Origin: Raja brachyura | Lineage: Eukaryota | DNA length: 64,000 nt | Reading direction: 5' to 3' | Assembly: GCA_963514005.1 (NCBI GenBank) | Contig: OY740792.1 | Location: forward strand, 67,394,001-67,458,000 | Shown: positions 21,813 to 62,290 of the stretch, piece by piece | How the letters are laid out: each line of letters opens with the position of its first letter | Position numbering within the stretch: position 1 is the stretch's first letter | Position numbers and translations under genes: made by a program | The notes under the pieces: generated by a model | What the model was told of the DNA's origin: nothing | Seen by the model: only the letters and a program-made list of their open reading frames with translations | Database searches by the model: none

Positions 21813-21848
21813 CTATTGCAGATTTTCATAGTTTATGGAAACATTATC
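21813..21848 (-). CDS. Gene 1 exon 6 (terminal): DNVSINYENLQ* with ITIM; frame stays open after the TAG to TEYAIL
   Basis: Strong acceptor ttgttatttttgtgttgcag; phase 0 matches exon 5; ITIM INYENL at 21819-21836; TAG at 21813-21815. Confidence 0.72.
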   Translation of the reverse strand, partial: DNVSINYENLQ

Positions 21849-22929
21849 CTGCAACACAAAAATAACAAATAACAATAAGAACCACTTGCAAATATTAGTG
21901 TTACAAAGTTCATATCATAGTTATAGAGCACGGAAACAGGCCCATCGGCCCAACTAGTCCACGACGACCAAGACACCCCATCTAAGCTAGTCACACTTGC
22001 CCGCGGTTGGCACTAGTGCCTCTAAACCTTTTTGTGTCCATGTACCTGTCCAAATATATTTTTAAATGGTGTTGTAGTCCCCGCCTCAACTACGTCCTCC
22101 GGCAGCTCGTTCCATATACCCACCACCATCTGAGTGATAAAGTTGCCCCTCAGTTTTTTCCTCTCACATTGAACATATGCCTTCTATTTCTCAATTCCCT
22201 TGGCTAAAAAAACTCAGTGCATTCACCCACCTATTCCCATTATGATTTTATGCACTTCCATAAGACTTGGAAGTCCAAGCCTGCTCAACCTCTCCCTATA
22301 GCCCAGGCCCTCAAGTCCTGTCAACATCATTGTAAATCGTCTCTATAAACATTCCAGCTTATTGTTAGAATGATATTTTCTTCATTTTAGAATTGGAGAA
22401 GCGGAGGAATTTTAGAACTTTAGAACATTTTGGATTACAATAGAATGGAGATGAGAGAATTTATTGAGCCAGATGGTGGTGAATCTGTGGAATTCATTAG
22501 CGCAGTCAGTGGTAGAGGCCAAGACATTGGATAATTTTACACAAAAGTGTAAAATTACAGTGACAGGGTTTGCTGGCAAGGAACTGCAGATGCACTAGAC
22601 TTTCACTTTTTAGAGAAACAGTGCGGAAACATGCCCTTTGGCCCACCAAGTCCGCGCCGAACAGCGATTAACCCCTGCACTAGCACTATCCTACATACTA
22701 GTAATATGTTTTACAGAAGCTAATTTGGAAAATGAGATGAAACGGGAGCACCCGGAGAAAACCCACAAGTTCACATGGAGAACGTACGAACTCCATGGAG
22801 ACAACCTCTGTAGTCAGGATCGAGCCCGGCTCTCTGGCGCTGTGATGCAGCAACACTCCCACTGCGCCACCGTGCCGCTGAATGTCTTGTGTTACAGAGA
22901 CATAGAGAGAGATACAGTGTGGAAACAGG

Positions 22930-23745
22930 CCCTTCGGTCCAACTTGCCCACACCGGCCAACAATGTCCCAGCTACACTAGTCCCACTTGCCTGCGCTTGG
23001 TCCATAACCCTCCAAACCTGTCCTATCCATGTACCTGTCTGTTTCTCAAACCATGGGATAGTCCCAGCATCAACTACCTCCTCTGGCAGCTTGTTCCATA
23101 CACCCACTACCCTTTGTGTGTAAAAGATACCCCTCAGATTCCTATTAAATCTTTTCCCCTTCACCTAGAACCTTTGTCCTCCGGTCCTCGATTCCCCTAC
23201 TTTGGGCAAGAGACTCTGTGCATCTCCTGTATCTATTCCTCTCATGATTTTTTATACCTCTGTAAGATCTCCCATCATCCTCCTGTGCTCCATGGAATAG
23301 AGACCCAGCCTACTCAATCTCTCCCTATAGCTCACACCCTCTAGTCCTGGCAACATCCTCATAAATATTTTCTGAAACATTTCAAGCTTGACAATATTTT
23401 TCCGATAACATAGTGCCCAAAACTGAACACAATATTCTAAATGCGGTCTCACCAACGTCTTATACAACTACAATACTCTGACTGATGAAGGCCAAAGTGC
23501 CAAAGGCCTTTTCGACCACCTTATCTACCTACGACTCGACCTTCAAGGAACCATGGTCGAATCGCAGGCAGATCCCTCTGCTCTACAATATTACCCAGAG
23601 GCCTACCATTTACTGTGTAGGTAATGCCCTTGTTTGACGTCCCAAAATGCAACACCTCACACTTCTCTGTATTAAATTCCATCAACCATCTGTCCAATCC
23701 TGCTGCAATCGTTCACAACCATCTTCACTAACTGCAAAACCACAA
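22930..23745 (-). mobile_element. CR1 3' fragment in the last intron of gene 1
   Basis: YKTLVRPHLEYCVQFW and TQRVVGVWN remnants. Confidence 0.85.
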
Positions 23746-23851
23746 AGTCAATTACACCGAATAGTGCTGATGAATCTGTTGATATAAGCTGACAATTCCT
23801 CAGAGCATCGTGAACGCAACATAAGGGTAAATATCAAACTAAATTACTCAC

Positions 23852-23919
23852 CTCATTTACTGAGTTCTTTCGTTTTCTCATTCTTTGAATATCAACAGTT
23901 GTGTCATGGACAAATGATT
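23852..23919 (-). CDS. Gene 1 exon 5, cytoplasmic (ESFVHDTTVDIQRMRKRKNSVNE)
   Basis: Acceptor catatttttatag, donor GAG|gtgagt, 68 nt, phase 1 to 0, open frame. Confidence 0.72.
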
Positions 23920-24525
23920 CTATAAAAATATGAATATTTAGTGTACTTCAGAGATACAGGACAGAAACAGGCCCTTCAGCCCACCGAGTCTACGCTGACC
24001 ATCGATCACGCTAGTTCTACGTTATCCCACTTTCACATCCACTCCCTGCACACTAGGGGCAATTTACAGAGGGTCAATTAACCGGCAAACCCACACGTCT
24101 TTGGGATATGGGAGGAAAACAAAGCACTCTGAGGAAATCCACGTGGTCAAAGGGAGAACATGCAAATTCTACACAAACTCAGCACCCGTGGTCAGGATTC
24201 AAGAGAGAGTTAGATTTATTTCTTAGGGCTAAAGGAATCAAGGGATATGATGAAAAAGCAAGAACGGGTCACTGATTTTAGATGATCAGTCATGATCATA
24301 TTGAATGGCGGTGCTGGCTTGAAGGACTGACTGTACCTACTCCTGCACCTATGTTTCTCTGTTTCTAACTTGGATCCCTGGCGCTGTGGGGCACCAGCTC
24401 TACAAGCTGTTGCCCTCCTTTTGTTTAAATTATTTTAATCTCTCTGGGAACTAAAGACAATATTCACTTTTATATGCTCAGTTTTTGGTTAAATTACAAA
24501 ATAAAATGTACAATGTATACATTAC

Positions 24526-24627
24526 CTTTCCCTTTCTTCAATTTACTGTGGTAATGATACACAATCCAGACCCATATTGGTACTATTAGAATAAGACTCA
24601 GTCGAATGAAATAATACTTGCCGAATC
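24526..24627 (-). CDS. Gene 1 exon 4, transmembrane (RFGKYYFIRLSLILIVPIWVWIVYHYHSKLKKGK) with Arg near the N-terminal end of the TM
   Basis: Acceptor taattttcaag, donor AAG|gtaat, 102 nt, phase 1-1; hydrophobic run followed by a basic stop-transfer segment. Confidence 0.8.
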
Positions 24628-26844
24628 CTTGAAAATTACAATTGAAATATGAATCAAAATAATGCTACAATGAATAACAATATAATAATGACTCTTGCAT
24701 GTTACATTACATTAAATAATTTAAATGCGCTGTTACATGAAACATTAATCATATATTTAGTTTAGTTTAATTTTGTTTAGAGACACAGAATAGAACCTGA
24801 TACTTAGACCCACAGGGTCCACGCTGACCATCGATCATCCGTTCACACCACTTCCATGTTATCACCCTTTCATATCCACTCTCTACACATTAGAGGCAAT
24901 GTGCAGGGACCAATTGAACTACAAACCTTTATGTGTTTTGGACATGCGAGAAAGCCAGAGCACCCGGAGGAAACCCACGCAGTCACGGCTAAAGCATGCA
25001 AACTCCACACAGACGATTGAAACAGAAATATATTAAAATCTAATATTTCCGATGTATTGCTCTTGTGAAATATGTCAATAGGATTGTTTCTGGAATTCTC
25101 TGCCACAGAAGGTAGTTGAGGCCAGTTCATTGGCTATATTTAAGAGGGAGTTAGATGTGGCCCTAGTGGCTAGAGGGATCAGGGGGTATGGAGAGAAGGC
25201 AGGTACGGGATACTGAGTTGGATGATCAGCCATGGTCATATTGAATGGCAGTTCAGGCTTGAAGGGCCGAATGGCCTACTCCTGCACCTATTTTCTATGT
25301 TTCTGCAGGAATTCCATGGTAAATATTACCAATATGTCTGTTAATATAGATATGTGTAGGAAAGAACTGCAGATTTTTGGTTTAAATCGAGGCAGACACA
25401 AACGGCTGGAGTAACTCAGCAGAACAGACAGCATCTCTGGAGAGAAGGAATGGGTGACGTTTCTGGTTGGGACTCTTCTTCAGACTGATGTCAGGGAAGT
25501 GGGCAGCACAGAGATAAAATGTAGTCAGAGACAGTAAGAGTGTTAGGAGAATTGGGAAGAGGGAGGGGATAGAGAGAGAGGGAAAGCAAGGGCTACTTGA
25601 AGTTACCGGTCAATGCGAATATAGATATTTATCCTTGATTATCACTTAAAATTCTAGTTCTATAAATATCTATCCTTAAAGAAATAAGACAGGCCTTTCA
25701 GAGGAGAAAATCTACATTATAGATTAACATTTTTATTATTCACTAAGTTCACTGTCACTAGGGTAAAGATAGGTTCCTTGCGTTGTAAATGACTGCAATT
25801 TACGTGTTGTAAATGGGGTCAAGGAAAGAGCATTCACGTCGCGGCCCTGTTTCCACCAAACTTTCCACCATCACGCACAACAAGCACAAGACAGACATCA
25901 TTGTATGGCTCTGGCTGAACAACTTCTAATCTTGTGTGTGGACTCGATAAGTGTTTATGAGAAGTGAAACATTTCACAAACCGCTAGGGTGTATTGGAAA
26001 ATCAACTGTATAACTGCTTCCTAAAAGCCTCTTAAACATCACTATCATATCTGCCTCCACTACCACCCCTGGCAGTGCATTCCCGGCACCCACCACCCTC
26101 TGTGTACAAAGACTCACCCTGCACATCTTCGTTAAACTTTGCCCCTTATAAACCAAAGAACAAGGAAAAATCATTATGGAAAATCAACAGTGAATCCTTA
26201 ATGTAATGGTCTGTCTTGGAACATCGATGTGTTGTGCACAGAATCTGCCAACCTCATAGAACATAGAACATAGAACATAGTACAGGCCCTTCAGCCTAAA
26301 ATATATCAGAGACGAACATGGAACCAAGTTAAACCAATCTTCTCTGCCTGCATGTGAATCATATCCCTCCATTCCCTGCATATTCATATGCCTATCGAAA
26401 CACCTCTTAAATGCCACTATCATATCAGCCTCCACCACCACTCCTGGCAGCATCTTCCATGCACTCACCACCCTCTGTGTAAAACAACTTGTCCCGTACA
26501 TCTCCTTTAAACGTTGTCTCTCTCACCTTGACGCTATGCCCTCTAGTCCTTGACATTTCCACTATCTAGCTTTCACATTGATTTGCTATAATCTGTTTAC
26601 TGGCTTCAGTAAATCATTTACTATGAAACCAAGATCTCCCAAGTCACATGGGATAAACGCTGCCTCCTGCCATTTACATAATATGCTTTTTTTTAAATTA
26701 AAGAAAAGAAAGAAAATGCTGGAAATATGCAGCAGGACAGGCAGCATATGTGGAAAGAGAAACAAAGTTAAAGGAAGAGGTCGGGGGCCAATCGTGAGAA
26801 CAGGGGGTGAAATAGATGATAGAGAGATGAGCAGAATTCCACAG

Positions 26845-27590
26845 GAAGGAACTGCAGATGCTGGTTTAAACCGAAGATAGACACAAAGTGCTGAAGTAAC
26901 TCCGTGGGACTGGCAGCATCTCTGGAGAGAAGGAATGGGTGACGTTTCAGGTCGAGACTCTTCTTCAGACTGAGAGTCACGGGAAAGGGAAATGAGAGAT
27001 ATAGATGATGATGTAGAAAGATATAGAACAAATGAATGAAAGATATGCAAAAAAGTAACGATGATAAAGGAAACAGGTAATTGTTAGCTGTAGCTAGGTG
27101 AGAAAAAATAAACTGTTGTGACTTGGATGGGGAGGGATAGAGAGAGAGGGGGAATGCAAGGGTTACTTGAAGTTAGAAAAATCAATATTCATATCAAGCT
27201 GCCCAAGCGAAATATGAGATGTTGTTCCTCCAATTTCCATTTAACCTCACTTTGACAATGGAGGAGGCCTAGGACAGAAAGGTCAGAGTGGGAATGAGAA
27301 GGAGAATTAAAGTGTTTAACAACTGGGAGATCAGGTAGGTCCAGGCGGACTGAGTGAAGGTGTTCAGCGAAACGATCGCCCAGTCTACATTTGGTCTCAC
27401 CGATGTATAAAGGTCCACATCTTGAACAACGGATACAGTAGGTGAGGTAGGGGGAGGTGCAAGTGAACCTCAGCCTCACCTGTTCGGACTACTGGGGACC
27501 CTGGATGGAGTTGAGGGAGGAGGTGTAGGGACAGGTGCTGCATCTCCTGTGGTTGCAGGAGAATATCTTCCAGGGTGACATTCCTGGGGG
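26845..27590 (-). mobile_element. Penelope 3' fragment (GIY-YIG end plus pLTR, hammerhead core at 26941-26968)
   Basis: ORF 27189..27479 is homologous to the C-terminus of 5723..8125; pLTR is similar to 8261-8477. Confidence 0.88.
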
Positions 27591-27714
27591 AAAAGTGGCA
27601 ATAATTTGAAAAGTAAATACATAAAGTGCTGTAGCAACTCAGCAGTCCAGTCAGCATCTACGAAGAAATGAAATACTGTAGGTGACGTTTTTCTTCAGAT
27701 AATTAGATAGAGAA

Positions 27715-30817: not shown

Positions 30818-30848
<31 letters not shown>

Positions 30849-31669
30849 TTACATCTACAAGTTTCTCCTTTATCCACCTGCGTGTTACTTTTTCCCAATT
30901 CAAATATATTGGTCAAAAACGATTTTCCATACCTTAGTTATTTCTGCATGGCTTGCTATAAATTCTGTAATAATAGCTTCGAACATTTTATCAATGGCAG
31001 ACGTTAAGCTAATTAAGCTAATAGATTATTGGTTTCTGCACTTGTTTGAATTAAGGAGCAAATGTGCTATTTTCCCATCTAATGCATCGTTCCACCAATC
31101 TTGGGAATCTCGGAATATTAAAACCTGTACAGCAACTAGCCACAAGGTGCTGGAGTAACTCAGCGGGTCAGGCAGCATCCCTGGAGAGCACTGGAAGGAC
31201 ATGTTTCAGGTGGAAACCCTTCTTCAGACAACAAGAAGACGATTTCTGCATACCCCTGACCTGGAACGTCACCTATCCATGTTCTCCAGAGATGCTGCCT
31301 GACCCGCGGAGTTACTCCAGCAATTTGTGCCCCTTTTCCACTGTTCCATCATATTCCACTGTCCTTGTAAGGAAACCAAGTTGATTTAACAGCAGCACTA
31401 TAACCGGTGGGGCTCCGTGAGCGAAATTGAAATGGTAATAATTAAGTACTGTGTATAGTTTATGGAGATACAAGGAACTGCAGATGCTGGAATCATGAGC
31501 AAAACACACAGTGCTGGTGGAACTCAGTGTGTCAGGGAGCATCTGTGGGCTGAAGAAGGGTCCCGACCCGAAACGACGCATGTCCATTCCCTCCACAGAT
31601 ACTGAGTTCCTCCAGCACTTTGTGTCTTGCTCAAGATTCCAGCATCTGCAGTTTCTCGAGTATCAATGT

Positions 31670-31830
31670 TATACATCTTCAACTTTCACTATTATTTGAA
31701 AACATTTACCGTTAAGATACGGCGTAAGTGCTTTATTAGGCCAAGATATATATAATATATATATGATAAAGCACTTACGCCGTATTTTTGCGGTAAATGT
31801 TTCAAATAATAATGAAGAAAGATGTGTATA
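31670..31830. repeat. Palindromic AT-rich element (MITE-like) with a (TA)n centre
   Basis: attatttgaaaacatttaccg...tacggcgtaagtgctttat is mirrored by ataaagcacttacgccgta...cggtaaatgtttcaaataat. Confidence 0.7.
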
Positions 31831-32677
31831 TATGAGCTGATATCATCGATGTATACATACATATATATAATATATAAGGCAGCAAATATATATATATCGA
31901 TGCACAGTTGAACTGTACTTGAGTTGCTGCCTTACAGCGCCGTAGACGCGGGTTCAATCCTGACTACGGGTGTAGGATGTGCCGAGTTTGTGCGTTCTCC
32001 CCGTGACCTGCGTGAGTTTTTTTCACGGATGCTCCGGTTTCCTCCCGCACTCCAAAGACGTACAGGTTTGTAGGTTAATTGGCTTCGGTAAAATTGTAAA
32101 TTGTCCCTAATGCGCAGGATAGTGTTAGTGTAAAACGTGTTTTAGAAGAAGGGCCTCGACCCGAAACGTGGCATATCCTTCTCCACAAAGATGCTGCCTC
32201 ACCCGCTGAGTTCCTCCAGCATTTTGTTGTCTACCCAGTGTATGAGGTGATCGCTGATCCCCCGAAATCTGTAAGGTGTAAAAGTCTAAATGCATATTTG
32301 CAGCAGATATTGTACACATTGACTGATCTTATACACTTTTGATCGGGTTAATGAATTGCGTTCAACGTTCTCCAGAGATGCTACTTGACCCGTTGAGTTA
32401 CTCCAGCACTTTGTGTACTTTTTTGTAAACCAGCATCTGCAGTTCATTGTGGCTACGTTTAACAAATTTGTACATATGTACTATTAAACCTTGTACATGT
32501 GTAGAAAGGAACTGCAGATGCGAGTTTACACCGCAGATAGACACAAAATGTTGGAGTAACTCGGCAGTAACTGAGCCGCTGACCAGCACTCTGTGTGTCT
32601 TCAGTAACTGGAGGACGTCGGCTGTTCGGTAACTGGACGACGCCGGCCGGAATGACACATTCATTCAAGCCACTTAC

Positions 32678-32989
32678 TTGGGGTGGGAGGGAAAAGTTCG
32701 CTCACCGAGCCCGTCCCCGTGAGGTGCTGAACCAGGCAGGTGGCGACCGTGCCCGCCTCTAGCCGAGGGTCGATGAGCCGCAGCCGGGAGCTCACGTTGA
32801 AGCTTCCATCCCCGTTCTCCCTCAGCGGCCCCGCTTCTGTTTCATAGGACAAGTGGCCCACGACAGCCCAGGACATGTTCAGCTCCCTCGGGAAGAATCC
32901 GGCGGCCACACAAGTCAGAGTCAGCTTCTGGTTCTGCGTCTCTGCGCCTTCTACCCCGGGATCCAGGCTCAGGGAGATGTCAGGCTTCG
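32678..32989 (-). CDS. Gene 1 exon 3, C1-set Ig domain (AKPDISLS...LTLTCVAAGFFPRELNMSW...NGDGSFNVSSRL...ATCLVQH...)
   Basis: C1 hallmarks CxxxGFxP...W, NxDGSF and CxVxH; acceptor tttttctactttacgcag, donor CAA|gtaagt; 312 nt, phase 1-1. Confidence 0.93.
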
Positions 32990-35743
32990 CTGCGTAAAGT
33001 AGAAAAACAGCACGTTGTGAATCTCCCTGTCGCTCTCAGTCATGCATGAGCAACTGTGATAACACGGCACGCCGTGCACCGTGCTGAAGGAGCAACCAAG
33101 TCATTCAATGGATTAGTAGCGGAATAAAGACGAGCTGCAAATGCTGGTTTATACCAACGAAAGGCACAAGTACTGGAGTAACTCAGAGGGTCAGGCGGCA
33201 TCTCTGGAGAATATGGATAGGTGACGAGAGGTAGACACAAACTGCTGGAGTCACTCTTCATGGATGATATGTGATGTTTGGGGTCGGGTTACTTCTACAG
33301 ACTACATCTCTTCAGTCTGTGTCTCAAAATGCACAATAAGAGAGAAAAATACAGGAAGCGAATGAAATGGAATTGGAGACACGGGAATTGGAGATGCTGG
33401 AATGTTTAAGAATAAGGGGTCGGCCATTTAGAATGGAGATGAGGAAAAACATTTCACCCAGAGAGTTGTGAATCTGTGGAGTTCGCTGCCTCTGAAGGCA
33501 GTGGAGGCCAATTCTCTGGATGCTTTCAAGAGCGAGTTATAGAGCTCTTAAAGATGGTGGAGTCCCGGGATATGGGGAGAAGGCAGGGACGGGGTGCTGA
33601 TTGTGGATGGTCAGCCATGATCACAGTGAATCTGCGGAGGGGTTGGACAGGCGGCGATTCGGGTCGGGACCCTTCGGTCTGAATCGCCGCCAGTCCATTC
33701 CCTCCACAGATGCTGCCGGACCCGCCGAGTTCCTCCAGCACTCTGTGTATTTTAATGCCTTAAATGGAAGTGAATATCTTGTAGACGGCAAACTAAATCC
33801 AAGCAGACGATGGACATCTAAAACAGAACATATAAATATTCAGCCGGACAGGCCTGATTCGTGGCAAGAGAACGACGGTCCATGTTCTCCAGAGATGCTG
33901 CCTGACCCGATGAGTTACTCCAGCACTTTGCGTCTTTTTGTTAACCAGCACCTCCGGTTCCTTGTGTTTCAGGGTCAGAGTTTCGGCTGGAAGTCTTCAA
34001 TGTGAATCGGAAAATTCTCTCTCCCCCCACCCCACAGATACGGACCGACCTGTTGAGTAGCTCCAGCATTTTATTTATTTGCTTTTACAACTGGTACTGT
34101 CCGGGCCCAGGTTGTTTCTGCAACAGAAGATGGGTTCACGTTGCCAGAATTATTTACCAGAGTCTGAGCGAGTCGGGCTCCCTGTCGTCAGCCCGTGGGC
34201 GATGGTAGAGCGGCCGCATTTTGCATTGTAGCTGCCTCCCTTTAATGAAGCGTTAGGAATGTGTGCGACCATCCCCACTGTCCGCTGATGCGGTGGGGTG
34301 GGGGCCGCACACGCGTCCCAAGTTCCCCAACCAGAATGCTGCCTTAACCACCCAGTTCCCCAGCACTTTGTGTTTTGCTTAAATAAAACTCCAGCGCCTG
34401 CAGTCCCTGTCTCCACTTCTATTTCTTCCCCTTCCTGCATTTTATCTCTGTCTATTAATGTGCATGTTGAGGCACAAACCAACCCAGACCTGACACTAAA
34501 CATCACCTATCCATGATCTCCAGGGGTGCTGCCTGACCCACTGAGTGGTATAAACCAGTGTCTACATTTGACTGCTCCACTGTGAAATTCATCAAGGTCT
34601 GCCTTATTGGAAGAAGTTATCCGACGTCAGTTCATTGAAAATAGGTGCAGGAGTAGGCCATTCGGCCCTTCAATGTGATCATGGTTGATCATCCAACTCA
34701 ATATCCCGTACCTGCCTTCTCTCCATACCCCCTGATCCCTTTAGCCAAGAGAGAGGTTCTGTAATAACCCCTCTCGCAGTCTGTAGTAGGGCCCCGTGCC
34801 GAGACGTCACCTATCCATGATCTCCAGGGGTGATGCCCGCCCCGCTGTTACTCCAGCACTTTGATTCTGCCCTCTCTCACTGCTGCCCTCAATGATTCTG
34901 TCGCTTATATTTAGTTGTGTTCATTTCCACACATAAACATGATGCATCTGCCGCACATTTGGTTATCGCAGCCGGGAATTGTTTCAGGGCCAGTTATTCT
35001 ACTTCCCTGGAGCCCGGAAGCAAATGTTAAACCGAACTTGACAAAGACAAGAATCCTTCAGCCGGTCAGGTCAAGAGGGAATCTAGAGAAAACTGAGAGA
35101 AACAAAGAGGTTTTTGTTTCCACACTCCCTCCTTGTAAGGAAACCAAGATAATTAAATGCCGGCACTAGACCTATTGGGGATATAAACACTGCGACCGAG
35201 GTTGAGGTTGTGTTCATTATCTATGTTGTATCATTAGGGAGACAGGAGGAACTCCAGATGCGAGTTTTTTTTTTCCAAAGATGCACTCAAAGCGCTGGAG
35301 TAACTCAGCGAGTCAGGCAGCATCTCTGGAAATCAGGGATTTAAGTTCGGGACCTTTTGTCAGACTGGGTTGGTTTGTGCCGGAAAATGAGCATTAATAG
35401 AGGGAGATGAAATGCAGGAATGAAATGGAAGTAGAGACAGGGAACTGCAGGCGCTGCAGTCTTAAGCAAAACACAAAATGCTGGAGGAACACAGCGGTTA
35501 AGGCCGCATCTGTGGAGGGAATGGACAGGCGGCGTTTCGGGTTGGGGAACTTGGGATTCGTGTGATTCACCAACCCCATCGCATCAGATCTCGGGGTGGC
35601 TGTGGAGGCAGATACGATAGTAGAGTTGAAGAGACTTTTGGATAGACACATGAATATACAAGTTAGTTTAACCTGGCCTCATGGTCCGCACGAACATTGT
35701 GGGCTGAAGGGCCTATTCCTGTTGTATGTTCTATATTAATTAC

Positions 35744-36073
35744 CTTGGATGTGCAATGTTGTTCCATTTCCTATACACTTTTTCCAGATATCATCCATCA
35801 GTACCACACAATGGTAAGTGTCTGCATCGTGCACAGTCGCTTTCCGAATGACCAGCGAGTCCTTGGACACGGACAGGCGGTCGCTTGTCTTCAGAAAACT
35901 CCCGAACTTGTTGTCCCAGAGATCCGGGTTGTCTTTCGTCCGAATCCAGTATCGCCTCATTGAAACTTTCTCCCCCTCTCCGGGTAGCAGGGAGCAGTTG
36001 AACCTCGCTGTCTGCCCTCGGAGAAGCGTCAGAGCAGCAGGAGACTGGATCACCCTCACACCGACAGCGGACC
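35744..36073 (-). CDS. Gene 1 exon 2, germline-joined VJ-type V-set domain (GSAVGVRVIQSP...FNC...YW...DADTYHC...CIGNGTTLHIQ)
   Basis: B-strand Cys, C-strand Trp, DxxxYxC and J-like GxGTxL in one exon; acceptor cactttccgtgccag, donor AAG|gtaatt; 330 nt, phase 1-1. Confidence 0.94.
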
Positions 36074-36763: not shown

Positions 36764-36812
36764 CTGGGAGAAAGAGGCAGAGCGTGCAGATGAATTTTGC
36801 AAACGATGACAT
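36764..36812 (-). CDS. Gene 1 exon 1, signal peptide (MSSFAKFICTLCLFLP-G)
   Basis: ccaaaATG start, hydrophobic core, 49 nt ending in phase 1 at CAG|gtaagt; splices in frame to the V exon. Confidence 0.88.
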
Positions 36813-48465: not shown

Positions 48466-48989
48466 ACCGCTGGATTCCAGTCCGTCGCGTCCGCATGAAC
48501 CAATGGCCAGCAGCGTCACCATCTTTGAGGAGGGCGGCCCTGGCCCTGGCCCTCCCCCGGGTGAAGCGCGGGGATGGATGGTTCCAGAGCACCAGGCACC
48601 GCTGCAACTACAACTGCACTTTTACATCAGTGGAACCACATCCACCAATCCAACTAACCTTTTGCCCAGTTCCGAGTTTTTGCAAAGAAATGTAGATGAC
48701 GGGAGAATAAAACCGCCCGTGGGCCGGATTATTTCAGTTTATGGGCCGAATGCGGCCCGCGGGCCGTAGGTTACTGACGCCTGCCTTTCACGTTGGAATA
48801 TTTTCCTCGCTGTGGGCTGCGCCCACGCAGATTGGTTTCCTCTCCTGTCAGTCAACGCCAGGTGAGACGGGCTCCACGGGTGACTGACAGCTGACGTGGC
48901 CAATCAGTGCAGCGATGGTGCAAAAAGGGGGTTTGCCTTCCCGGCCATGACTGACAGGAGAGGAAAGCAATCTGCGAGGCAGTGACTGA

Positions 48990-50746: not shown

Positions 50747-52020
50747 TATCCATAGCCCATTATGCAGTGTTAGTTTAGTTTAGTGATACAGCATTGAAAC
50801 AGGTCCTTCCGCTCTTTGAGTCCACACTGACCATCAATCTCCCATTTACACTGATCAAATCCAACTTTATTCTCTCCCCATTGTTCTCAATTCCCCACAG
50901 ATTCTATTACTTCCTACACACTACAGGCAATTTACAGAAGCCAATTCGGAGCACCTGGAGGAAACCCACGCGGTCACAGGGAGAATGTGCAAACTCCACA
51001 CACACACACACACACACACAGTCAGCACCTGAGGTCGTGATTGAACCTGGGTCTCTGGCGCTGCGAGGGAGAAACTTTACCTACAGTGCCACTGCTGACT
51101 GGGCAATTTCACTTTGCTCACTCTTAAAAATGAATCAAATATATTTCCCAAATTGCCACGTCGAATATTTCTCTTTGAATAGACAGAGGTAGGTAGGTTA
51201 TATCCAGAATTGGAAACTCTTACATAAATTATAACATTAAAATGAATAGTACCGACACCTGTGGAATTCTGTCAAAATCCAACCAATATTAATTCAAATC
51301 AAAAGATATAACTCAAACACAGGAAATAATTGGAAATATATTTTTAATGAAATCAATTTTTGTAAAAATAGAAAAATTATTAACGCTTTTATTTTTCTTC
51401 AGCAATTTTAATGAATTAAAAAAAATAATCATAATTGGTAACTTAAAAAATAAAATGAATGAAATAAACCATACCAAACGATACACAATCTGGCTTCTCC
51501 TCACAAAGTTCTTTTTTTGATACCAATTCTGGCAGAAACATTGTCTCCTACCTAACAAACATCCAGTTACATTGTCATTCCCACTTATTGCATACAAACT
51601 CACGTAACATGAAGGCAGCCTAATTTCATCCAATTTGCAAATCATGCAATATTCACTTGTCTTAAATCAGTTCAGAATGAACATTTAGTTAAAATAATGT
51701 ATGTTAACTTAATCACAAACTTAAAAGCTCAATAAAACTATTAATGTGGCTTTCATGTAATGCAGTGCGGTAGAACTATAGGCTGTGACTCCAACACCCA
51801 ATGGAGACCCAAATTTATTGCTGTAAATGAATCATTATTCAATCCAACGGAAGCATGCAGGGGACAGGTGCCTCTGAATGTTAGAGTGTACCCATCATCA
51901 TTTCACCTAGGGCGTCTTCACACCTTTCCACTGCATTCTTGGACAGTATAAAGATTCATTGATACTATATCCCATTAATAGCTGGCAGAAAGTGATGTGA
52001 CCAGCTAATTCCACACAGGT

Positions 52021-52900
52021 TGTTATCCCTGATCAACTGGACTCAGACAACTTGCGTTCGTTTCCCAAACACCCTTTATTTACGTGCGCACGAGAAGAGA
52101 AACACAGTCCCAGTTACCGTACTACTCTGAAATTCTGCTTGGAAGTGTCGACTTTTATACACATTCTGACCAATTGAAATCTTGCGCACTCTCCAAATTC
52201 TTATCACCAATCACAATACGTTCATAAAAGCACTAATATCAAATTAAAAACTGCACGCATTTGCATTTAATGTAAGATAACTCTCTTGGACCTTGTGCTG
52301 TATGGTTAGAGCCAGTTGCATGTCAAAAGAACAACTCTCCAGGACCTGTGCTGTACAGTTATCACAGCCTGTGCATCATAGGCTAATGCTCAAGGATCGT
52401 TAGCTGTACACCTGTAGCTGGTTGCACGCTCCCTTAATCTTTCTCATACGGCAGTTTCCACAAGGTCAAGATTGAAATATTCATAAAACATTCATGAAAT
52501 ATCAGAATATTGAAGAAAATCAACAGCACAGAACATGTATCTAAACCAGTTACATAGGAGTTCTAGTTTTCCATTAAAATTCATGACGTTGCTATTAACA
52601 AAACATTAAAATCCAGCGCTAATGATTAATGTTTCTAAAGTCCACTATTTAACTAAGATACACCCAAGAACTAAAACATATTCAAATTTCAAAACTGTAG
52701 CTGGATGTACGTTACCCTAACCTTTGTCATTCTGCAGTTCCCACAAGGTCAAGGTTGAAAGCCCCAGATTCCAGGCTCCAACAAATTAACATCCTTATGT
52801 TGACTGCACCATCGTCAACAACCAACACTCAACTGTTGGATCTGTCCCGACCTTGATCAAGAGTGCATTACGTCTAAAGTTTAATTTATAACACTTCAAC
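52021..52900 (-). mobile_element. Possible solo LTR
   Basis: tgttat...ataaca termini; TATAAAA (52153-52159) lies upstream of AATAAA (52075-52080) on the minus strand; no TSD found. Confidence 0.3.
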
Positions 52901-55900
52901 AGCCAAGACCATGTTTCCAAACCAGTTGCTTATACGGTTATAATAAAAAGAAACTGCAGCTGCTGGTTTATACCAAAGGTAAGACACACAATGCTCGAGT
53001 AGCTCAGCAGGTCAAGCAATTCTCTGTGGAAAATGGATAGGTGACACTTCAGGTAGGGACCCTTCTTTAGAGCCTGTCTGATGAAGTGCCCCAACCCGAA
53101 ATGCAGCTATCCATTTTCTAGAGAATTTGCCTGACCTGCTAAGTTACTCCACCATTGTGTTTAACTCTACTTATACGATTGCTAGTTTTTCATTAACATA
53201 CTGCAGTTCGCAAAAAACATTAAATGCTGATGCTAATGATTAATATGTTTCAAAAGTCCACTATTTCACTGAGATAAACTTACTCAAAGTCCTCTCTTCA
53301 AACAATATTCAAGAACATCCAACTCATCTCCCTTTCTAGTCTGATTTATGAGATTGTGTGAATTCTAAATCCTTTAATCCCAAGCATTGACCTTGATTAC
53401 ATATGCTTATGCATCCATGTACCTGTATAATACAAGTTAAGGCTTTTCCCAATCTGTTGAATTCTGCAGCATCATATCTCACTCATTTCTGGAGTGAATG
53501 TACAACCAACGTTCTCAACACAGCCTCTTCTGTCATGTACGAGCCAGAATCCTTGGAATCAGGTCATTCAGCCCAACTTGCCTATGCCAACCAAGCATGC
53601 CCCAATTTCCTGCCTGTGTTTAGCCCAAATCCCTCCAAAACTTTCCTATCATAAGTTGTCCGAGCAGAATTAAGGCATTTGGCCCATTGAGTCCTCTGTC
53701 ATTCAACATGGCTGATCTATCTTTCCCTCTCAACCCCATTTTCCTGCCTTCTCCTCATAACCTTACAAATTGAGAACCTGTCAGTTTTCAATTCAGAAAT
53801 ACCTAAAGACTTGGGCTCTACTTGGTCTGTGAAATGAATCCCAGATTCACCTCCCTCTGAATGTACATACTTTTATATCCTCATCTCCTTTCTGAAGGTA
53901 GTACTTTTATTGTATCCATGTATCTGTCCAGATGTATTATAAATGTTGTTATTGAACCTGCCTTAAAGACCTCTGCTGGCAGCTCGTTCCATATACCTAC
54001 CACCATCTGTGTGAAAAAGTTGCCCCTCGGGTACCCATTAAATCTTTCCCCTCTCGCCTTAAAGCTATGCTCTCTGATTAACTCTGGGAAAGACTGTGCA
54101 TTAAAATTATATATGATTAAACATTTCAATGAGCACAATGAATATACTGCAATGAACACTGCAGATACTGGAAATCCAAAACAAAAGCAGGAAATATGAT
54201 CATTGGGAAGAGAAACAGTGTGGACACCTGTCAAGGTTTCAGAACGAGAAAAATAAGAAAATAAACATTTTAAAAATAGTTGGCTTCCAGCGGGTAGAGC
54301 TGCTGCTTCACAGCGCCAGAGACCCGGGTTCGATCCTGACCTCAGGTGTTGTCTGTGTGTGGAGTTTGCAATTGTGTTTGCTCCGGGTGCTCTGGTTTAC
54401 TGCCACATTCCAAAGATGAGTGGGTTTGTAGGTTAATTGGGTGTAAAGATACCCCAAGTATGTAGGGAGTGAACAAGAAAGTGAACTAGTGTGAACGGGT
54501 GATCGATGATCGGCATCGAGAGAATGTCTGTGATAGATTGGAGACCAAACTTGCCTACATAAAAACCAGGAGTTATATTTTTAAGTTTCAAAGAGAGAGC
54601 ATGGAACAGGCCCTTCGGCCCACCGAGTCCATGACGACCGTCGATCACCTGTACATTAGTTCTATGTTATCTCACTTTTGCATCCTAAATGGGCCGATTA
54701 ACCTACAAACCTGCATGTCTTTGGGATGTGGGAGGAATTTGGATCACCCAAAGGAAAAACACATGGTCACAGGGAGAATGTGCAAACTCCACACAGTCAG
54801 GATTAAACTCGGGTCTCTGGCACTGTAAGCAGCTGCTCTGACACTACATCACTGTGAGGCGGAGGTTCAAGTAGAGGAGGAAGTAGATCTCATTTAAGGT
54901 CCATGTCCGAGTGAGGCACGGAGCTGCAGGAGAGGGCAAGCGAGAGACGACTGGTGCCAGCGCATGGCGTAGAGTGTAGAACTCGGAGCATGGATGGGGT
55001 GTGTAGCAAGTTGTGGTGAGTAGGGTCCAGGTACCTTGGACCCAGGACGGCCCAGAAACCTAAAGGCCTCGAATTGGAACTGGAAGCCATGTGGAACAAC
55101 TGAGCAGTGAAGGCAAGTGCTGAGGAAACACACGTGGCTATGTTATCGACGGCAGGAGGAACTGACTGAGTGGGAGCAGTGAGAGAGAGAGAGAGAGAGT
55201 GGCTGAACTTTAAACAATAACATTTAGTTGAGTTTAGAGATGCAGCACAGAAACACGCCTTACGGCCCACTATTCGGCGCTGACTAGTGATCCCCGTACA
55301 CTAACACTATCCTATACAAGAGGGACAATTTACAATTCTACCAAAGCCAATTAGTCTACAAACCCGTACGTCTATGAGTGTGGGAGGAAATTGGAGCTCC
55401 CAGAGAAAACCCACACAGGGCACGGGGAGAAAGTACAGACTCCGTGTAGCCAGCATCCATAATCAGGATCGGGCCTGGGTCTCTGGCGTTGTAAGGCAGC
55501 AACTCTACCGTTGTGCCACCGTGCCACCCATTTCTTTATTAAATTTGGCGGTCAGGCCCTTAAACATCTTACAGGACGATGATCCACAATAGACACCAAC
55601 AGCAGGAACAACATCTCGCACACAGCATCTTTTGGATTACAAATAAGCACTATCGTGTCTTAATCCCATCACAAAGCAGAGAACAGATTCAAAGTAGACA
55701 TACAGTACATGGCAGCTGAGAATCCCGAGTAGTCGCATGAATGCACAGGGATATCTCCACAACGGTCCACATTTGATTATTCTTTGCCCCACAGTGCTTT
55801 AATTTGTGGACAAAATGGTGTCATTATTCTACACGTTCCTTAATGTCGGTATCATAAGCTGTTTAAGGACCTGATCCTAAAAGCTGTTTCTCAGCACACA

Positions 55901-56150
55901 TGGTCAACCGATCAAGATCTTCAGATTGATTGTGTGTTGGGGGGGGGGAGAGGGAGGGAGGAGAAACCTGGAAGAGAGTAGTGGGCAGGATAAAGCCTGG
56001 CAAGTGATAGGTGGATACAGGGAAGAGGTGGGGCGGGGATTTGGGTTTGATTGGCAGACAGGTGAGCAAAAGCCGGAGATGAAAATACAAAATATCACTA
56101 GTTTCCTTGTGTGACAAAAACACGTTGTTTGGAGCAATGCATCTTTTGAT

Positions 56151-56203
56151 TTATAAATCTGAAGTTTTTTTTCCATCATCCACCCGGATTAAGTGATGTC
56201 CAT
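56151..56203 (-). CDS. Gene 2 candidate terminal exon (NGHHLIRVDDGKKTSDL*), no TM
   Basis: Strong acceptor attttctttattttcag; phase 1 compatible with the C exon; lies in a non-repeat island. Confidence 0.5.
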
Positions 56204-56711
56204 CTGAAAATAAAGAAAATGGACAAAAATAAATCAACATTTTCCCTGCTAATGCTGTTCAGACACAGGTTAGCACTGTAAACAATAACAACATTACAGT
56301 AAACCCTCTTTATAAAGGACCATGTGGGGGAGTATGGTATCTGTTATTACCAATTGTTCGCTATAACTGAGTAAGGGATTATCATTGCATAAGTGCTGGA
56401 GTAACTCAGCGGGTCAGGCAGCAGCAGCTCTGGAGAACATGGACAGGTGCTGTTTCGGGTCGGGACCCTTCTTCAGACTCTCGGTCGGGAACTGGGCCTG
56501 GAATCCAGGTGGATGCTGGCAGCCGCCAGAGAGGTGAGGATGGGCAAGGTCTATGGTCTCGGCCCATGGACAGCCGGATTGCATGTAAAGGCCGTCGGTG
56601 GTGTGGCTTTTTACTGTATCTCGGTACACATGATAATAATAAACCTAAGCACTGAATTTTGAACTGTGCACCTCCTCGATTATCTGTGATCCAAACAACT
56701 ACATAATCAGA

Positions 56712-59700
56712 TGATTCTTCAGTAAGTCTCTACTTTTAAGTTTCTGGAAACCCGAATATAAAACTTAAATTTTTGCAACTTTGAATGTTGTTTCGCATAG
56801 GTGAACATCTCCACTATGGGAAAAATATGTTTGGCTCAATCTTTTAGAGAATTTAATATATGTTTTCATCTTTTTTTTCCAGGTTACCCTTTGCATTCAG
56901 TCACAACCGTCATATTTTTATGAGGAACACGGCAAAATATAACTGATTTAAGAATATAAAATAACAATTTTGTCGCAGTCTTTCAAATTATAGAGTATCT
57001 TCCTCAGATAAACCACCAAAAAAAAACTTTTTCAGTCTAACGCATTGATTTTAAAGGTACGTATGCAACAAGAAACTGAGTTTTCACGCTTCTCATCCCG
57101 CGAATCAGGAGAAATTCACAAGGTAGGGCACTTTTGAATTCCATGGTCTTTTGAGGTCGGAAGTTCGCGTCTATTCTATTTATAGCCATGTTGGACGGCT
57201 CAACAAAGCGGCGTGATGGTAATGACTCCTATCATCGGGACACGCACGTTTTGAAACAATATGGTAAGATTTATAATTTTATAAAGGGGAAATTGTAAGA
57301 GTACAGAATCTTTATGTCCCTGTTCGGTTGAAAGGAAATAGTAAAAATCGGAAAGAGCCATGGTTTTCAAGGTAAATTGGACACTTGGTTCAAAAAAAGA
57401 GATATCTACAATAATTATAGGAGGCATGAGTAAATGAGGTGCTGGATGAGTATAAAGAATGCAAAAAGAATCTTAAGAAAGAAATAAGAAAAGCTAAAAG
57501 ATATGAGGTTGCTTTGGCAAGAAAGGTGAAAGTAAATCCAAAGGGTTTCTACAGCTATATTAATAGCAAAAAGATAACGAGGGATAAAATTGGACCATTA
57601 GAGAGCCAGAATGGACAGCTATCTGCAGAGCCAAAAGAGATCGGGGAGATATTGAACAATTTCTTTTCTTCGGTATTCACCAAGGAGAAGGATATTGAAC
57701 TCTGTGAGGTAAGGGAAAAAAGTAGAGTAGCTATGGAAACTATGAGACTCAAAGAGGAGGAAGTACTGACACTTTTGAAAAGTATAAAAGTGGATAAGTC
57801 TCCAGGTCCTGACAGGATATTCCCTAGGATATTGAGGGAAGTTAGTGTAGAAATAGCAGGGGCTATGACAGAAATATTTCAAACGTCATTAGAAACGGGA
57901 ATAGTGCCGGAGGATTGGCGGACTGCGTATGTTGTTCCATTGTTTGAAAAGGGTTCAAAGAATAAATCTAGCAATTACAGACCTGTTAGTTTGACGTCAG
58001 TGGTGGGCAAATTAATGGAAAGGATACTTGGAGATAATATATATAAGCATCTGGATAAACAGGGTCTGATCAAGAACAGTCAACATGGATTAATGCCTGG
58101 AAGGTCATGTTTGACAAACCTTCTTGCATTTTTTTAAGAGGTTACTAGGGAAATTGATGGGGGTAAAGCAGTGGATGTTGTCTATATGGATTTCAGTAAG
58201 GCCTTTTCCCCATGGAAGGTTGGTTAAGAAGGTTCAATCTTTGGGTGTTAATGGCGGAGTAGCAAGATGGATTCAACAGTGGCTGAATGGGAGATGCCAG
58301 AGAATCATGGTGGATGGCTGTTTGTCAGGTTGGAAGCCGGTGACCAGAGGGATGCCTCAGGGATCGGTGTTGGGTCCACTGTTGTTAGTCATGTACATCA
58401 ATGATCTAGATGATGGGGTGGAAAATTGGCTAAGTAAGTATGCAGATGATACTAAGATAGGGGGTGCTGTGGATAATTAAGTCGATTTTCAAAGTCCACA
58501 GAGAGATTTGGGCCATTTGGAAGAGTGGGCTGAAAGATGGCAGATGGAGTTTAATGCTGATAAGTGTGAGGTGCTACATCTTGGCAGGACAAATCAAAAT
58601 AGGACGTACATGGTAAATGGTAGGAAATTGAGGAATGCTGTGGAACAGAGGGATCTAGGAATAACTGTGCATAGTTCCCTGAAGGTGGAATCGCATGAAG
58701 ATAGGGTGGTAAAGAAAGCTTTTGGTGTGCTGGCCTTTATAAATCAGAGCATTGAATATAGGAGTAGGGAAGTAATGTTAAAATTGTACAAGGCACAGGT
58801 GAGACCAATTTTGGAGTATGGTGTACAATTTGGTCGCCTAATTATAGGAAGGATGTCAACAAAATAGAGAGAGTACAGAGGAGATTTACTAGAATGTTGC
58901 CTGGGTTCCAGCAACTAAGTTACAGAGAAATGTTGAACAAGTTAGGTCTTTATTCTTTGGAGCGCAGAAGGTTAAGGGGGGACTTGATTGAGGTCTTTAA
59001 AATGATGAAAGGGATAGACAGAGTTGACATGGATAAGCTTTTCCCATTGAGGGTAGGGAAGATTCAAACAAGAGGATATGACATGAGAATTAAGGGACAG
59101 AAGTTTAGGGGTAACATGAGATTCATCTTGAATCTTCCCTACCCTCAATGGGAAAAGCTTATCCACGTCAACTCTGTCTATCCCTTTCACCTTCCATGGG
59201 GAAAAGGCCTTACTGAAATCCATATAGACAACATCCACTGACAAACCTGAGTGGTGGCAGTGTGGAATGATCTTCCAGCAGAAGTGGTGGAGGCAGGATC
59301 GATTTTAACATTTAAAAGTAAAGTGGATAGGTATATGGACGAGAAGGGAATGGAGGGGTATGGTCTGAGTGCAGGTAGATGGGACATGGGGAAAATAAAT
59401 GTTCGGCATGGACTGGAAGGGCCGGGAAGGCCTGTTTCCGTGCTGTAATTGTTATATGGTTATAAGAATAGAGGATTTTTTTTAGGGTGATAAATAGTTT
59501 AATTATTAATGCCTACCGTTTAAAAGTATTTTCATTTACGATATATCCCCCCCCATTAAAGTAATATGCCGACTTGTAATTTCACTAGTAACCGTCGGGA
59601 TATGTGGTTTTCGGGGGGGGGGGGGGGGGGGAAGGGAATCGAATATCGGGTAAATTTTTTTTTTAAACCACTTTATTCATTTAATCTTTATTTATGAGGA

Positions 59701-59811
59701 TGATGTTTATTAACAATATACAGGAAGGAGAAATGGGATAGAAATATGAATTTTCCTTATATTCAGCATCAAAATAGCAGGACAGCATGGTAGACACTTA
59801 CTGAAGAATCA
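56712..59811. mobile_element. Non-autonomous DNA transposon (22-bp TIRs) interrupted by a CR1
   Basis: tgattcttcagtaagtctctac at 56712 versus gtagacacttactgaagaatca ending at 59811 (1 mismatch). Confidence 0.6.
57283..59462 (+). mobile_element. CR1 LINE, 5'-truncated, frameshifted, with a complex rearrangement at 59121-59248
   Basis: ORFs 57439..58137, 58124..58480, 58508..58867 and 58894..59241. Confidence 0.93.
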
Positions 59812-60629
59812 CCCAATTGTTTTATCTGAAAATTCTGAGCTATGGAGGCTACTTAATAAGTGCAATCCAGAAAATAGTCATCAGTCATTCCACACTGCTA
59901 ACAATTTCAAAGTTTCTCATGACCAACAATCAGAAACATTGTGCCAAACTTAGTTGATCCATCCGTACAGTATACGTTTTACTTTACCATACTTGAGAGA
60001 CACTGTGTTGAAACAGGCCCTTCGGCCCATCGGGACCGCACTGACCAGCGATCACCCCGTACGCTAGCTAGGACTATCCTACACACTGCACATGGCGGAG
60101 TATTCGGCTAGCCACGCGGTGGGAGAATCCCGGCAAGCCTCGGCAAAGCCCACCAGCAGGCCTAGCTGGCTTGCCGTGGACTGAGGACCCGCTCTGCAGA
60201 CCGGAACCCGCCTGTAAGGCCTGGCTCACCCACCCAGAGTGAAGTGAGTTGGACAGAGGGCCAGTAAACAGACCGGCTGCAGTAGGCAGTGCACTGCCTT
60301 GATGGGGGAGTGGGCCGCTGGAGGCCCTGCAACAGCCTGGGCCTCGACTGGACCGGGCATCACTCCAAGAGGCCGAGCACGTGGACCGGGCGCTGTCTAG
60401 AGTGGTGGAGGACATCATGGTGACACATGGCCAGGCCGAACCTGCAATGCCACCAGGCCAACAGGCCTTCATGGTCAGATCAAGAACCCTGCATTTACAA
60501 TTGTCACTCGAAAATGGTGACTGTATACTCACTCTGTGTATCGCTGCAAGACACTTGTATCTGTGATATCTCTACTGAGCTTATTTAAATTAACTTTTAC
60601 TTGATTAATAATCTCAGAGATAAACTTAC

Positions 60630-60893
60630 TCGAGAAGACCGCTCGAGTCTGTTTTCTCATCCACTTATGCCACATTGCGCAGATGTACTGATTCTGTTGC
60701 TCATATTCTTTCAGATGGTGGGTCACGTTGAAATAGCCATTGCTTTCTCTCATGATCATTTCACTGTACTTGTTTAAATCGTTCCCCGATTTGTCCTTCC
60801 ACTCCACTGTTGGGGCAGGATACCACCCTGACGACTGGCAAGAGAGCATGCCCTTTTCGGAATTCCAGGATACTTTGATAAGATCGGTAGCAG
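60630..60893 (-). CDS. Gene 2 constant-type Ig exon, B7/butyrophilin-like (LSCQSSGWYPAPTVEWKD...YICAMWH)
   Basis: CxSxGWYPxPxVxWxD signature; acceptor ttcttttcttggcag, donor CGA|gtaagt; 264 nt, phase 1-1. Confidence 0.9.
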
Positions 60894-61951
60894 CTGCCAA
60901 GAAAAGAAACATAAATAGCAACCGTTAATGGCGACATGGTGGCGCAGCGGTAGAGTTGCTGCCTTACAGCGCCACAGACCTGGCTTCCATCCTGACTATG
61001 GGTGCTGTCTGTACGGAGTTTGTCCGTTTTCCCCGTGACCGTGTGGGTTTTCTCCAGGTGCTCCAGTGTCCTCCCACACTCCAAAGACGTGCAGGACAAT
61101 TGAGATTTTTTACCGATGCCAATTAACCTACCGACCTTGGATAGATATAAAATGCTGGAGTAACTCAGGCAGCATCTCTGTAGAAGGAATGGGTGACGTT
61201 TCGGGTTAAGACCTTTCTTCAGACCTGTATGCCTTTTGTGTGGGAGGAAGCTGGTGTTCCCAGGGAATACCCACGTGGTCTCGGGGAGAATGTACATACA
61301 CCATACAGAGTGTACCCATAGTAAGGATCGAACTCTGGTCTCTGGTGCAATAAGACAGCAACTCTACCGCTGCGCCACCGTGCTGCCATTAATAGTTGTA
61401 TAATTAGATACCCCAGTTCTTTGTAACTTTGTTGCCATGGACATTCTCAGCTACATTTCCTCCTGACAGAGGCATGAAGTTTATTTGAACTGGTGCAACT
61501 TCACAAGAGAATTTTGATGAAGGGAGATGATACCAGAATTTTCGGCATCTGGCTTGCTGTAAAAAAAGCTGTTAAGAATTAAAAAGAATCCCTAAAACTG
61601 AACAATGAAATAAATAAACTGAGGTACATTTGACCCTCACTGTAAACAGAACAAGAGAGAAGACAAGGAGGTTTCCAGTAGCGGGTGAGTCTAGGACTCG
61701 AGGGCACAGCATCAGAATAAAACAATGTTCCTTTAGAAAGGAGAAGAGGAGGAATTTCTACAGCCCGAGGGTGGTGAATCTGTGGAATTCATTGCCACAG
61801 ACAGCTGTGGATTCCAAGTCGTTGGGTATTTTTAAAATGGAGATTGACAGGTTCCTGATTAGTACGGGAGTCAGGGGTATGCGAAGAAGGCAGGAGATGA
61901 CCTGATGGGCCGAATGGCATAATTCTGCTCCTATCAAGTATGAAGACATAC

Positions 61952-62290
61952 CCCAAACAGATAGCTGGACAAATCCAGCTCCATATCCACCGTCAGTGCT
62001 AATATTGACAATGTACTTTCCCTCATCCCAGATTTCCACATTCTTCAATGTAAGGAATGCTTTTCCTTTTTTAAATAAGAATGTGTCGACTTCAATTCTT
62101 CCAGAGTAGTTGGCATGTTGTTTTCTGAAATCGCTTTTATCTTCCTTGTACTCATACAAGATTCCGGCATCTTGATCCTTCTCCCACCTCACCCTCGGTG
62201 CACATGGATCGTTGCACTCAAACGTACACTTGAAGGTGACATCCTTGCCGATCTCTACATCTGGGGCTGGTTCACAAGTGGTGAATGCAT
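61952..62290 (-). CDS. Gene 2 V-set exon, B7/butyrophilin-like (GKDVTFKC...VRWEK...YSGRIEV...GKAFLTLKNVEIWDEGKYIV)
   Basis: Acceptor ctttctgtcttttgttcag, donor GGG|gtatgt; 339 nt, phase 1-1; B7/BTN V signature; leader exon not found in the window. Confidence 0.9.

Follow-up and report, generated by a model that had tools for sequence, protein, structure and literature searches.

Whether two adjacent genes of the immunoglobulin superfamily (IgSF) in a skate genome encode a receptor and its ligand, or products of another kind, is the question raised by a locus of Raja brachyura on contig OY740792.1. The window, a stretch of 64,000 nucleotides (contig 67394001-67458000), lies ~1.6 Mb from the end of this 69-Mb contig and holds both genes on its minus strand between window positions 21,813 and 62,290. 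The stop codon of gene 1 and the ATG of gene 2 are 19,338 bp apart, in agreement with the first-pass annotation, which had described two consecutive, co-oriented IgSF genes separated by ~19 kb. That annotation was silent on the C1 domain of gene 2, on the missing transmembrane (TM) segment of gene 1 and on the paralogous copies. Both it and the automatic annotation mislabeled the locus, which likely consists of a paired receptor, built from a germline-joined variable-joining (VJ) exon and a C1 exon, beside a predicted secreted, triplicated B7-H4-like gene. The explanation favored here, judged from sequence and held at a probability of roughly 0.55, is that gene 2 likely supplies the activating-type half of an inhibitory/activating pair, with gene 1 likely being a co-duplicated, secreted ortholog of B7-H4 (VTCN1).

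Gene 2 has six coding exons running from the ATG at 36812 to the stop codon at 21815-21813, with five GT-AG introns, and encodes 298 amino acids. The leader exon (36764..36812, minus strand as are all parts of the gene) is followed by a VJ exon (35744..36073; Pfam V-set), which is joined in the germline and closes with a J-like G-x-G-T end, and by a C1 exon (32678..32989; Pfam C1-set, E 5.6e-13). The TM exon (24526..24627) carries an Arg codon at 24604-24602 where the paralog has Leu. The first cytoplasmic exon (23852..23919) leads to the last coding stretch (21813..21848), in which a new INYENL motif is followed by TAG (21815-21813) at the Tyr of the first inhibitory motif of the immunoreceptor tyrosine-based kind (ITIM). 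The former tail-coding sequence past the stop (21360..21812) still holds a recognizable second Tyr motif and is broken by an AT-rich insertion of ~0.2 kb that is absent from the paralog.

Since a C1 domain is present, gene 2 belongs neither to the CD28 family nor with NKp30. The earlier label of an NKp30/CD28-like receptor is therefore abandoned in favor of a non-rearranging V-C1-TM-tail receptor, whose complementarity-determining region 3 (CDR3) has no prolines. The best matches of the V exon in the PDB are TCR-alpha and VNAR domains, with weak E-values. In a fold search, the V model (predicted local distance difference test 88.8) matched NCAM2 (Z 13.5, root-mean-square deviation 1.5, 88 residues aligned) and a skate VNAR (Z 13.5, deviation 2.1, 96 aligned), with CD79b, TCR and PD-1 within ~1 Z of the top, so that these are generic Ig matches only. 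NKp30 is absent among the 60 PDB sequence matches and 50 fold matches listed for the V domain, and CD28 is absent from the fold listing. The top PDB match of the C1 exon is UrIg2, with the score summed over several domains, and among longer proteins a homolog search with the V domain returned only a titin-like mite protein. Elsewhere on the contig, a short piece similar to the beginning of the receptor V exon lies among repeats at ~35.9 Mb (L003:433-834), 31 Mb away, and two C1-set exons with 42% identity to the C1 of the receptor lie at 61.59 and 61.74 Mb (L021 and L022), ~5.7 Mb away. A composition-based exon hunt was too noisy for use.

A genome search found a second receptor at 67.11-67.13 Mb, ~300 kb from the window copy, and three copies of gene 1 at 67.15, 67.27 and 67.45 Mb; receptor and gene 1 were duplicated together as one unit. 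The divergence between the two units is uneven. A near-identical tract (31246..64000, no strand), mostly 96-99% identical to the paralogous unit, runs ~24 kb beyond the window and so extends from window 31.2 kb to 88 kb, ~57 kb in all, spanning the receptor leader, V and C1 exons as well as gene 1. An older-diverged part (17403..27690, no strand), which holds the TM and tail exons, is ~85-93% identical in collinear non-repeat blocks. Exons 1-3 of the two receptors differ at 15 of 691 bases (2.2%) and exons 4-6, encoding the TM and tail, at 18 of 206 (8.7%). The introns follow the same pattern, with differences of 2.3-2.4% in introns 1-2, 7.3% in intron 3 and 12.9% in intron 4; the alignment of intron 5 is unreliable.

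The middle copy of gene 1 sits after a gap of 200 N (contig 67257876-67258075). Sequence on either side of the gap corresponds to window positions 12,190 and 47,593, with precisely the receptor-bearing segment left out between them, so that a third receptor copy could hide in the gap. A block of ~70 kb is also duplicated at 97-99% (contig 67187000-67258000 and 67334000-67406000), includes window 1-12,190 and could represent either a haplotype copy or a duplication of recent date. This block and the gap, both lying between the receptor copies, are what one would point to if the two copies were an assembly artefact with haplotypes placed in tandem. Such an artefact is extremely unlikely, given that the TM/tail regions show differences of 7-15% and numerous indels and that independent sequencing runs, described below, hold both versions of these exons.

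By sequence, the two receptors have opposite TM/tail designs. The paralog encodes 335 amino acids, with all introns GT-AG, an uncharged TM and two ITIM-type motifs, LHYAPV and TEYAVL. In the window copy, a Leu of the outer TM has become Arg, a stop codon has replaced the Tyr of the first ITIM-type motif, and INYENL has arisen by one Asn>Tyr change right before that stop; both conserved Tyr motifs are lost. As in paired receptors, near-identical ectodomains are joined to diverged TM and tail regions and, by sequence, one member bears ITIMs while the other has a charged TM and lacks the conserved ITIMs. The window copy is likely the activating half because its TM residue is charged and its tail shortened while its twin keeps the inhibitory motifs. 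Over ~12% synonymous divergence, the TM and first tail exon of the window copy have kept frame and splice sites, whereas the sequence past the stop has taken an insertion, a contrast that favors the activating reading. Since the stop lies within what is the last coding exon of the paralog, the mRNA would probably escape nonsense-mediated decay. The tail of the inhibitory paralog (contig 67111932-67112078) itself ends before those of the shark orthologs and is without their distal Tyr motifs.

Orthologs of gene 2 occur in sharks and rays and, more distantly, in a caecilian, whose homolog has the same VJ-C1-TM-tail layout. Their automatic names are mostly SIRP-like, with some kappa-light-chain-like. 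No skate model of gene 2 came up in a profile search, though absence cannot be read from that. All 12 long-tailed shark and ray orthologs combine at least two Tyr motifs with a TM core free of charged residues. A different TM exon is used in five short-tailed models, which come from sawfish, horn shark, Mobula hypostoma and Hemitrygon; four of these have Arg near the outer TM end and one has His, and the short-form alignment included only the four Arg forms. Two further models have no TM. Within a species, the ectodomains of long and short forms are 99.5% identical in sawfish, 97.5% in horn shark and 95.5% in the skate genome analyzed here, compared with 66-72% across genera. In a 22-row ectodomain tree with one isoform per gene, the sawfish, horn shark and skate pairs each group by species with strong support. 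The TM exon of the window copy is plainly of the long-form type and thus of inhibitory descent, so that the activating form would have been remade within this lineage. Neither the tblastn matches listed over 458 kb nor a genome-wide search made with one 50-residue query and no positive control yielded the short-form TM exon seen in rays and horn shark. Four stingray and devil-ray orthologs (P0052, P0053, P0065 and P0071) have two near-identical C1 domains in a V-C1-C1 layout like that of SIRP, probably as a result of recent exon duplication.

Gene 1 has four exons on the minus strand and encodes 233 amino acids. Its leader exon (contig 67473513-67473468) lies 15 kb outside the window and is followed by an IgV exon (61952..62290; Pfam V-set), an IgC exon (60630..60893; Pfam C2-set_3, BTN-like, E 1.2e-14) and a last coding exon (56151..56203) with a short hydrophilic tail and the stop. 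The frame ends 17 codons past the C exon, with neither a TM nor a B30.2 exon. For this reason a butyrophilin was rejected, and of the B7/butyrophilin-like identity first proposed only the B7 family stands. A hydrophobic frame near 54,230 was likewise rejected as a TM exon, as it lies past the stop exon and is absent from the orthologs. Orthologs span 222-238 amino acids and lack a TM. Among 10 sequences from RefSeq and Logan (226-238 amino acids), none has a hydrophobic segment of TM strength, the best 19-residue hydropathy being 0.4-1.3 against 2.0-2.75 for the receptor TMs, and the product is likely secreted. The unnamed Logan proteins are encoded on contigs of 1.0-1.5 kb, too short for the genomic gene and so probably derived from spliced RNA.

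The best PDB match of the gene-1 V exon is VTCN1 (43 bits vs 37 for PD-L1), the gene-1 orthologs of five batoids are named VTCN1 or VTCN1-like by RefSeq, and the V domain is 86% identical to a Leucoraja protein. Genes for a GH47 mannosidase (contig 66.76-66.95 Mb) and a TENT5 protein (66.49 Mb) lie 0.2-0.6 Mb from the paralogous unit, which fits the human gene order VTCN1-MAN1A2-TENT5C, where TRIM45 and TTF2 stand on the other side. Gene 1 shares the V+C fold of B7 proteins with VTCN1 and, from the V-domain match, the RefSeq names and the MAN1A/TENT5 neighbors, is most likely its ortholog. It differs from mammalian VTCN1, which has a C-terminal membrane anchor, in that no batoid sequence compared has a hydrophobic anchor there, and further in its three tandem copies and in its cysteines. 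The F-strand Cys of the V domain is Val here, and is missing in skates and sawfish yet retained in Narcine; as four other Cys are present, the disulfides may differ. The protein ends in D-L or E-L after Ser or Val in 7/10 orthologs and in all three copies here, a terminus loosely like an endoplasmic reticulum-retention or PDZ-type end.

Several observations weigh against an activating receptor paired with an inhibitory twin beside a B7-H4 ortholog. For gene 1, a two-domain profile ranks BTNL8 and CD276 over VTCN1, of which the PDB structure compared is the V domain only, and the Atlas puts butyrophilin-like clusters first. TRIM45- or TTF2-type markers were not found on the contig with the Pfam queries used, zf-GRF and filamin, so the VTCN1 synteny is one-sided. 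For the receptor, the long and short forms of other species are automatic gene models, and the Mobula hypostoma pair is 84.8% identical and not grouped by species. Of the changes between the two skate ectodomains, 4 are synonymous and 11 non-synonymous (proportions pS 0.023 and pN 0.021), a neutral-like balance with no sign of purifying selection of one against the other, and the TM and tail give a pN/pS of 0.074/0.12 on 17 changes. The end branch of the window copy is the longer one (0.038 vs 0.010 in the paralog), as is also predicted under relaxed constraint, and the homogenized tract far exceeds the ligand-binding exons. Because it takes in intergenic DNA and all of gene 1, homogenization was not confined to those exons.

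The near-neutral ectodomain, the longer branch and the extent of the tract are also what the main rival explanation would predict, namely that the gene in the window is either a duplicate in decay or a non-signaling decoy, with the TM Arg and the stop as damage and the ectodomain identity as the result of a recent large conversion or crossover that swept in gene 1. Its subtelomeric setting, rich in repeats and segmental duplications, also suits decay. Set against it are the intact splice sites and the intact frame up to the stop, the probable escape of the mRNA from decay, and an Arg and a stop that match the short-form design of other elasmobranchs. Contigs from four of six DNA runs, representing two related organisms, were compared over 21,700-24,800, with contig depth not taken as copy number. 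Over the TM/tail exons they comprise a near-identical set and a set ~10-13% diverged. No difference of full share falls at the Arg or the stop codon among those listed, which leave 454 further rows unseen, and in organism B one is listed at the base adjoining the stop codon. The Arg and the stop are likely common to a second organism. A search for RNA evidence listed no RNA data set. On this balance decay appears unlikely, though by no means negligible.

A third reading keeps the window copy inhibitory, with the C-terminal INYENL as a single ITIM and the Arg as incidental. Judged by the generally known ITIM consensus, INYENL, a product of a single Asn>Tyr change, fits as well as it fits YxN, which is a further point against an activating role. 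Both conserved Tyr motifs are lost, however, a TM Arg occurs in 4/5 short forms and 0/12 long forms, and YxN is a GRB2/GADS motif (PMC11599192). A receptor that is still inhibitory is accordingly judged very unlikely.

For the favored inhibitory/activating pair, a mechanism may be outlined. Gene conversion or unequal crossing-over would keep the V-C1 exons of both receptors alike, and because of this likeness both would see the same or a similar ligand, with the B7-H4-like product of the adjacent gene among the candidates. In the paralog, LHYAPV and TEYAVL would serve to recruit SHP-type phosphatases. The TM Arg of the window copy would let it associate, as such residues are known to do, with an adaptor of the FcR-gamma or CD3-zeta type bearing immunoreceptor tyrosine-based activation motifs, and its YENL might contribute a signal of the Grb2 type. 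What rays and horn shark build as an activating form on another TM exon would here be remade from the inhibitory gene. The simplest reading of the sequences is an old elasmobranch VJ-C1 pair under concerted evolution, with its activating-type member remade in the skate lineage. Mammalian pairs offer a precedent in restricted homogenization and in ITIM-less activating partners with a TM Arg (PMC3210942).

Whether the VJ-C1 receptors bind the adjoining B7-H4-like protein is a separate matter, compatible with the pair proposed above. If the two form a cis-linked module of this kind, the ligand, being soluble, would act on the receptors by cross-linking or blocking them. The two genes are adjacent and co-duplicated, and both orthologs lie on one sawfish chromosome of 120,465,868 bp; co-duplication is nonetheless expected from proximity alone, and gene-to-gene adjacency is seen in one genome. 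At CDR3 positions Cys+5 to +9, 7/9 shark rows read E-x-P-x-P and 1/9 reads x-x-P-x-P, as does the caecilian, in the register of the CD28H/CD28HL motif, and CD28H binds B7H7 (PMC11599192). The proline motif is found in 0/10 ray rows, however, and in neither copy here. Comparison of the three copies of gene 1 gives 28 non-synonymous against 4 synonymous differences, several of them around the predicted FG loop, an excess that is not significant (ratio omega 1.7-2.3, p 0.07-0.22). Against binding, the V domain has changed faster in the receptor than in gene 1, with identities to the window of 65% and 49% in sawfish and Narcine against 72% and 62%. In favor of it, the receptor of B7-H4 was called unidentified in 2017 (PMC5732181). 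Overall, binding between the neighbors is decidedly doubtful. Of the linked receptor/B7 module first suggested, the proximity of a B7 gene and a germline-joined VJ receptor holds, and the CD28-type identity of the receptor does not.

A bolder scenario would take an ancient, antigen-receptor-like VJ-C1 pair, kept beside VTCN1 in sharks and rays, as the original B7-H4 receptor, lost in mammals. The ray ligand would have become secreted and the CD28H-like CDR3 remodeled. The present skate lineage would have lost its old activating gene and made a new one out of the inhibitory gene, through Leu>Arg in the TM and a stop codon at the ITIM Tyr, with ectodomain and ligand converted as one block. This scenario is a long shot.

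Among known systems, the closest layouts to gene 2 are those of SIRP and of PRARP/VJC1. SIRP-alpha/SIRP-beta share the V domain with joined VJ, the C1 domain, the ITIM-type long form and the short form with a charged TM; SIRP-alpha and -gamma are the top PDB matches of the sawfish ortholog, and most RefSeq ortholog labels are SIRP-like. They differ in being V-C1-C1, whereas each copy here has one C1 exon in the 858 kb searched, and in their surroundings, the neighbors here being MAN1A/TENT5/VTCN1-like and the human SIRP genes lying at 20p13; the activating TM residue of SIRP is a DAP12-type Lys rather than Arg. The non-rearranging PRARP/VJC1 receptors, reportedly described by Fu et al. and by Ohta et al. 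in 2019, are said to have a germline VJ-C1-TM-tail layout with motifs of the ITIM type or of the immunoreceptor tyrosine-based switch type (ITSM). By that definition, the paralog and the orthologs resemble them in their VJ-C1-TM structure and ITIM/ITSM tail; we know of no described activating partner with a TM Arg. NKp30 (NCR3) has a joined VJ exon, a TM Arg, shared by the window copy only, and a B7-family ligand, B7-H6. Unlike gene 2, which has a C1, it consists of one V only; it is linked to the major histocompatibility complex (MHC) (PMC12227049, PMC10751288). The neighbors found around the present locus are the GH47 mannosidase, TENT5 and a seven-transmembrane (7TM) gene.

UrIg and UrIg2 are likewise non-rearranging VJ plus C1 genes of elasmobranchs, with three C1 domains in UrIg and at least nine in UrIg2, and map to the MHC and the antigen-receptor complex (PMC12227049). 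CD28H/CD28HL resemble the family in the G-strand GxG, in the E-x-P-x-P CDR3 of the shark orthologs and in the YxN of the window-copy tail, and differ in being a single V-TM-tail family (PMC11599192), where gene 2 has a C1. The CD28-family CDR3 motif (PPP or EIP) is absent in the window copy and the paralog, and four gene-2 ortholog accessions, man1a2 and vtcn1 are absent from nine text supplements of PMC11599192. KLRC, KLRI, PIR and Ly49 (PMC3210942) likewise combine shared ligand-binding exons with opposite TM/tail designs; the skate locus differs in that its homogenized tract includes an unrelated neighbor gene and in that its family belongs to cartilaginous fish.

The interval between the two genes (36813..56150, no strand, 19.3 kb) is repeat-rich, much as the initial description of it as mostly transposons implied. 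Matches by blastn outside the duplicated block cover 58% of it in the 858 kb compared, and of 13 open reading frames (ORFs) put to Pfam one matched a reverse transcriptase and one a DDE transposase; the other 11 had no match, and none of the 13 matched a cellular gene family. At 37819-43106 lies a multi-copy element with reverse transcriptase-like and recombinase-like ORFs that by eye resembles a DIRS-type retrotransposon; three of its ORFs had no Pfam match. Farther off, 140 of 785 distal ORFs were put to Pfam and gave one 7TM ORF and otherwise transposon or retroviral matches. This single-ORF rhodopsin-family gene (L099:366-1307) is the nearest distal non-transposon match and has no PDB match at 1e-12. 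Retrovirus-like fragments with Pfam env (TLV_coat) and integrase C-terminal domains (L112:1785-3758), a large array of a 71-bp satellite with ~76% matches between units (contig 67512700-67580000) and ~7.4-kb units repeated in tandem, 98-99% identical to one another (contig 67300874-67322494), complete the surroundings.

The elasmobranch pair was not found described in the literature searched, and its novelty is provisional, as Ohta 2019, Fu 2019 and Dornburg and Yoder 2022 may cover the family as PRARP/VJC1. Six gene-2 ortholog accessions were not found in the papers searched, a search that did not extend to the supplements of PMC12227049 and PMC10751288. Paired receptors with homogenized ectodomains are known from tetrapods, and a pair in a shark and several rays would date the paired design before the shark-ray split. 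If the neighbor is the ligand, the locus offers a testable receptor for B7-H4; if the window copy is merely decaying, it still holds a mis-annotated family worth describing. With its VJ exon joined in the germline, the receptor has the build of a single Ig/TCR chain, and genes of this type have been looked for as remnants of the pre-RAG precursor (PMC12227049). In the window copy, two point changes may record the conversion of an inhibitory into an activating receptor.

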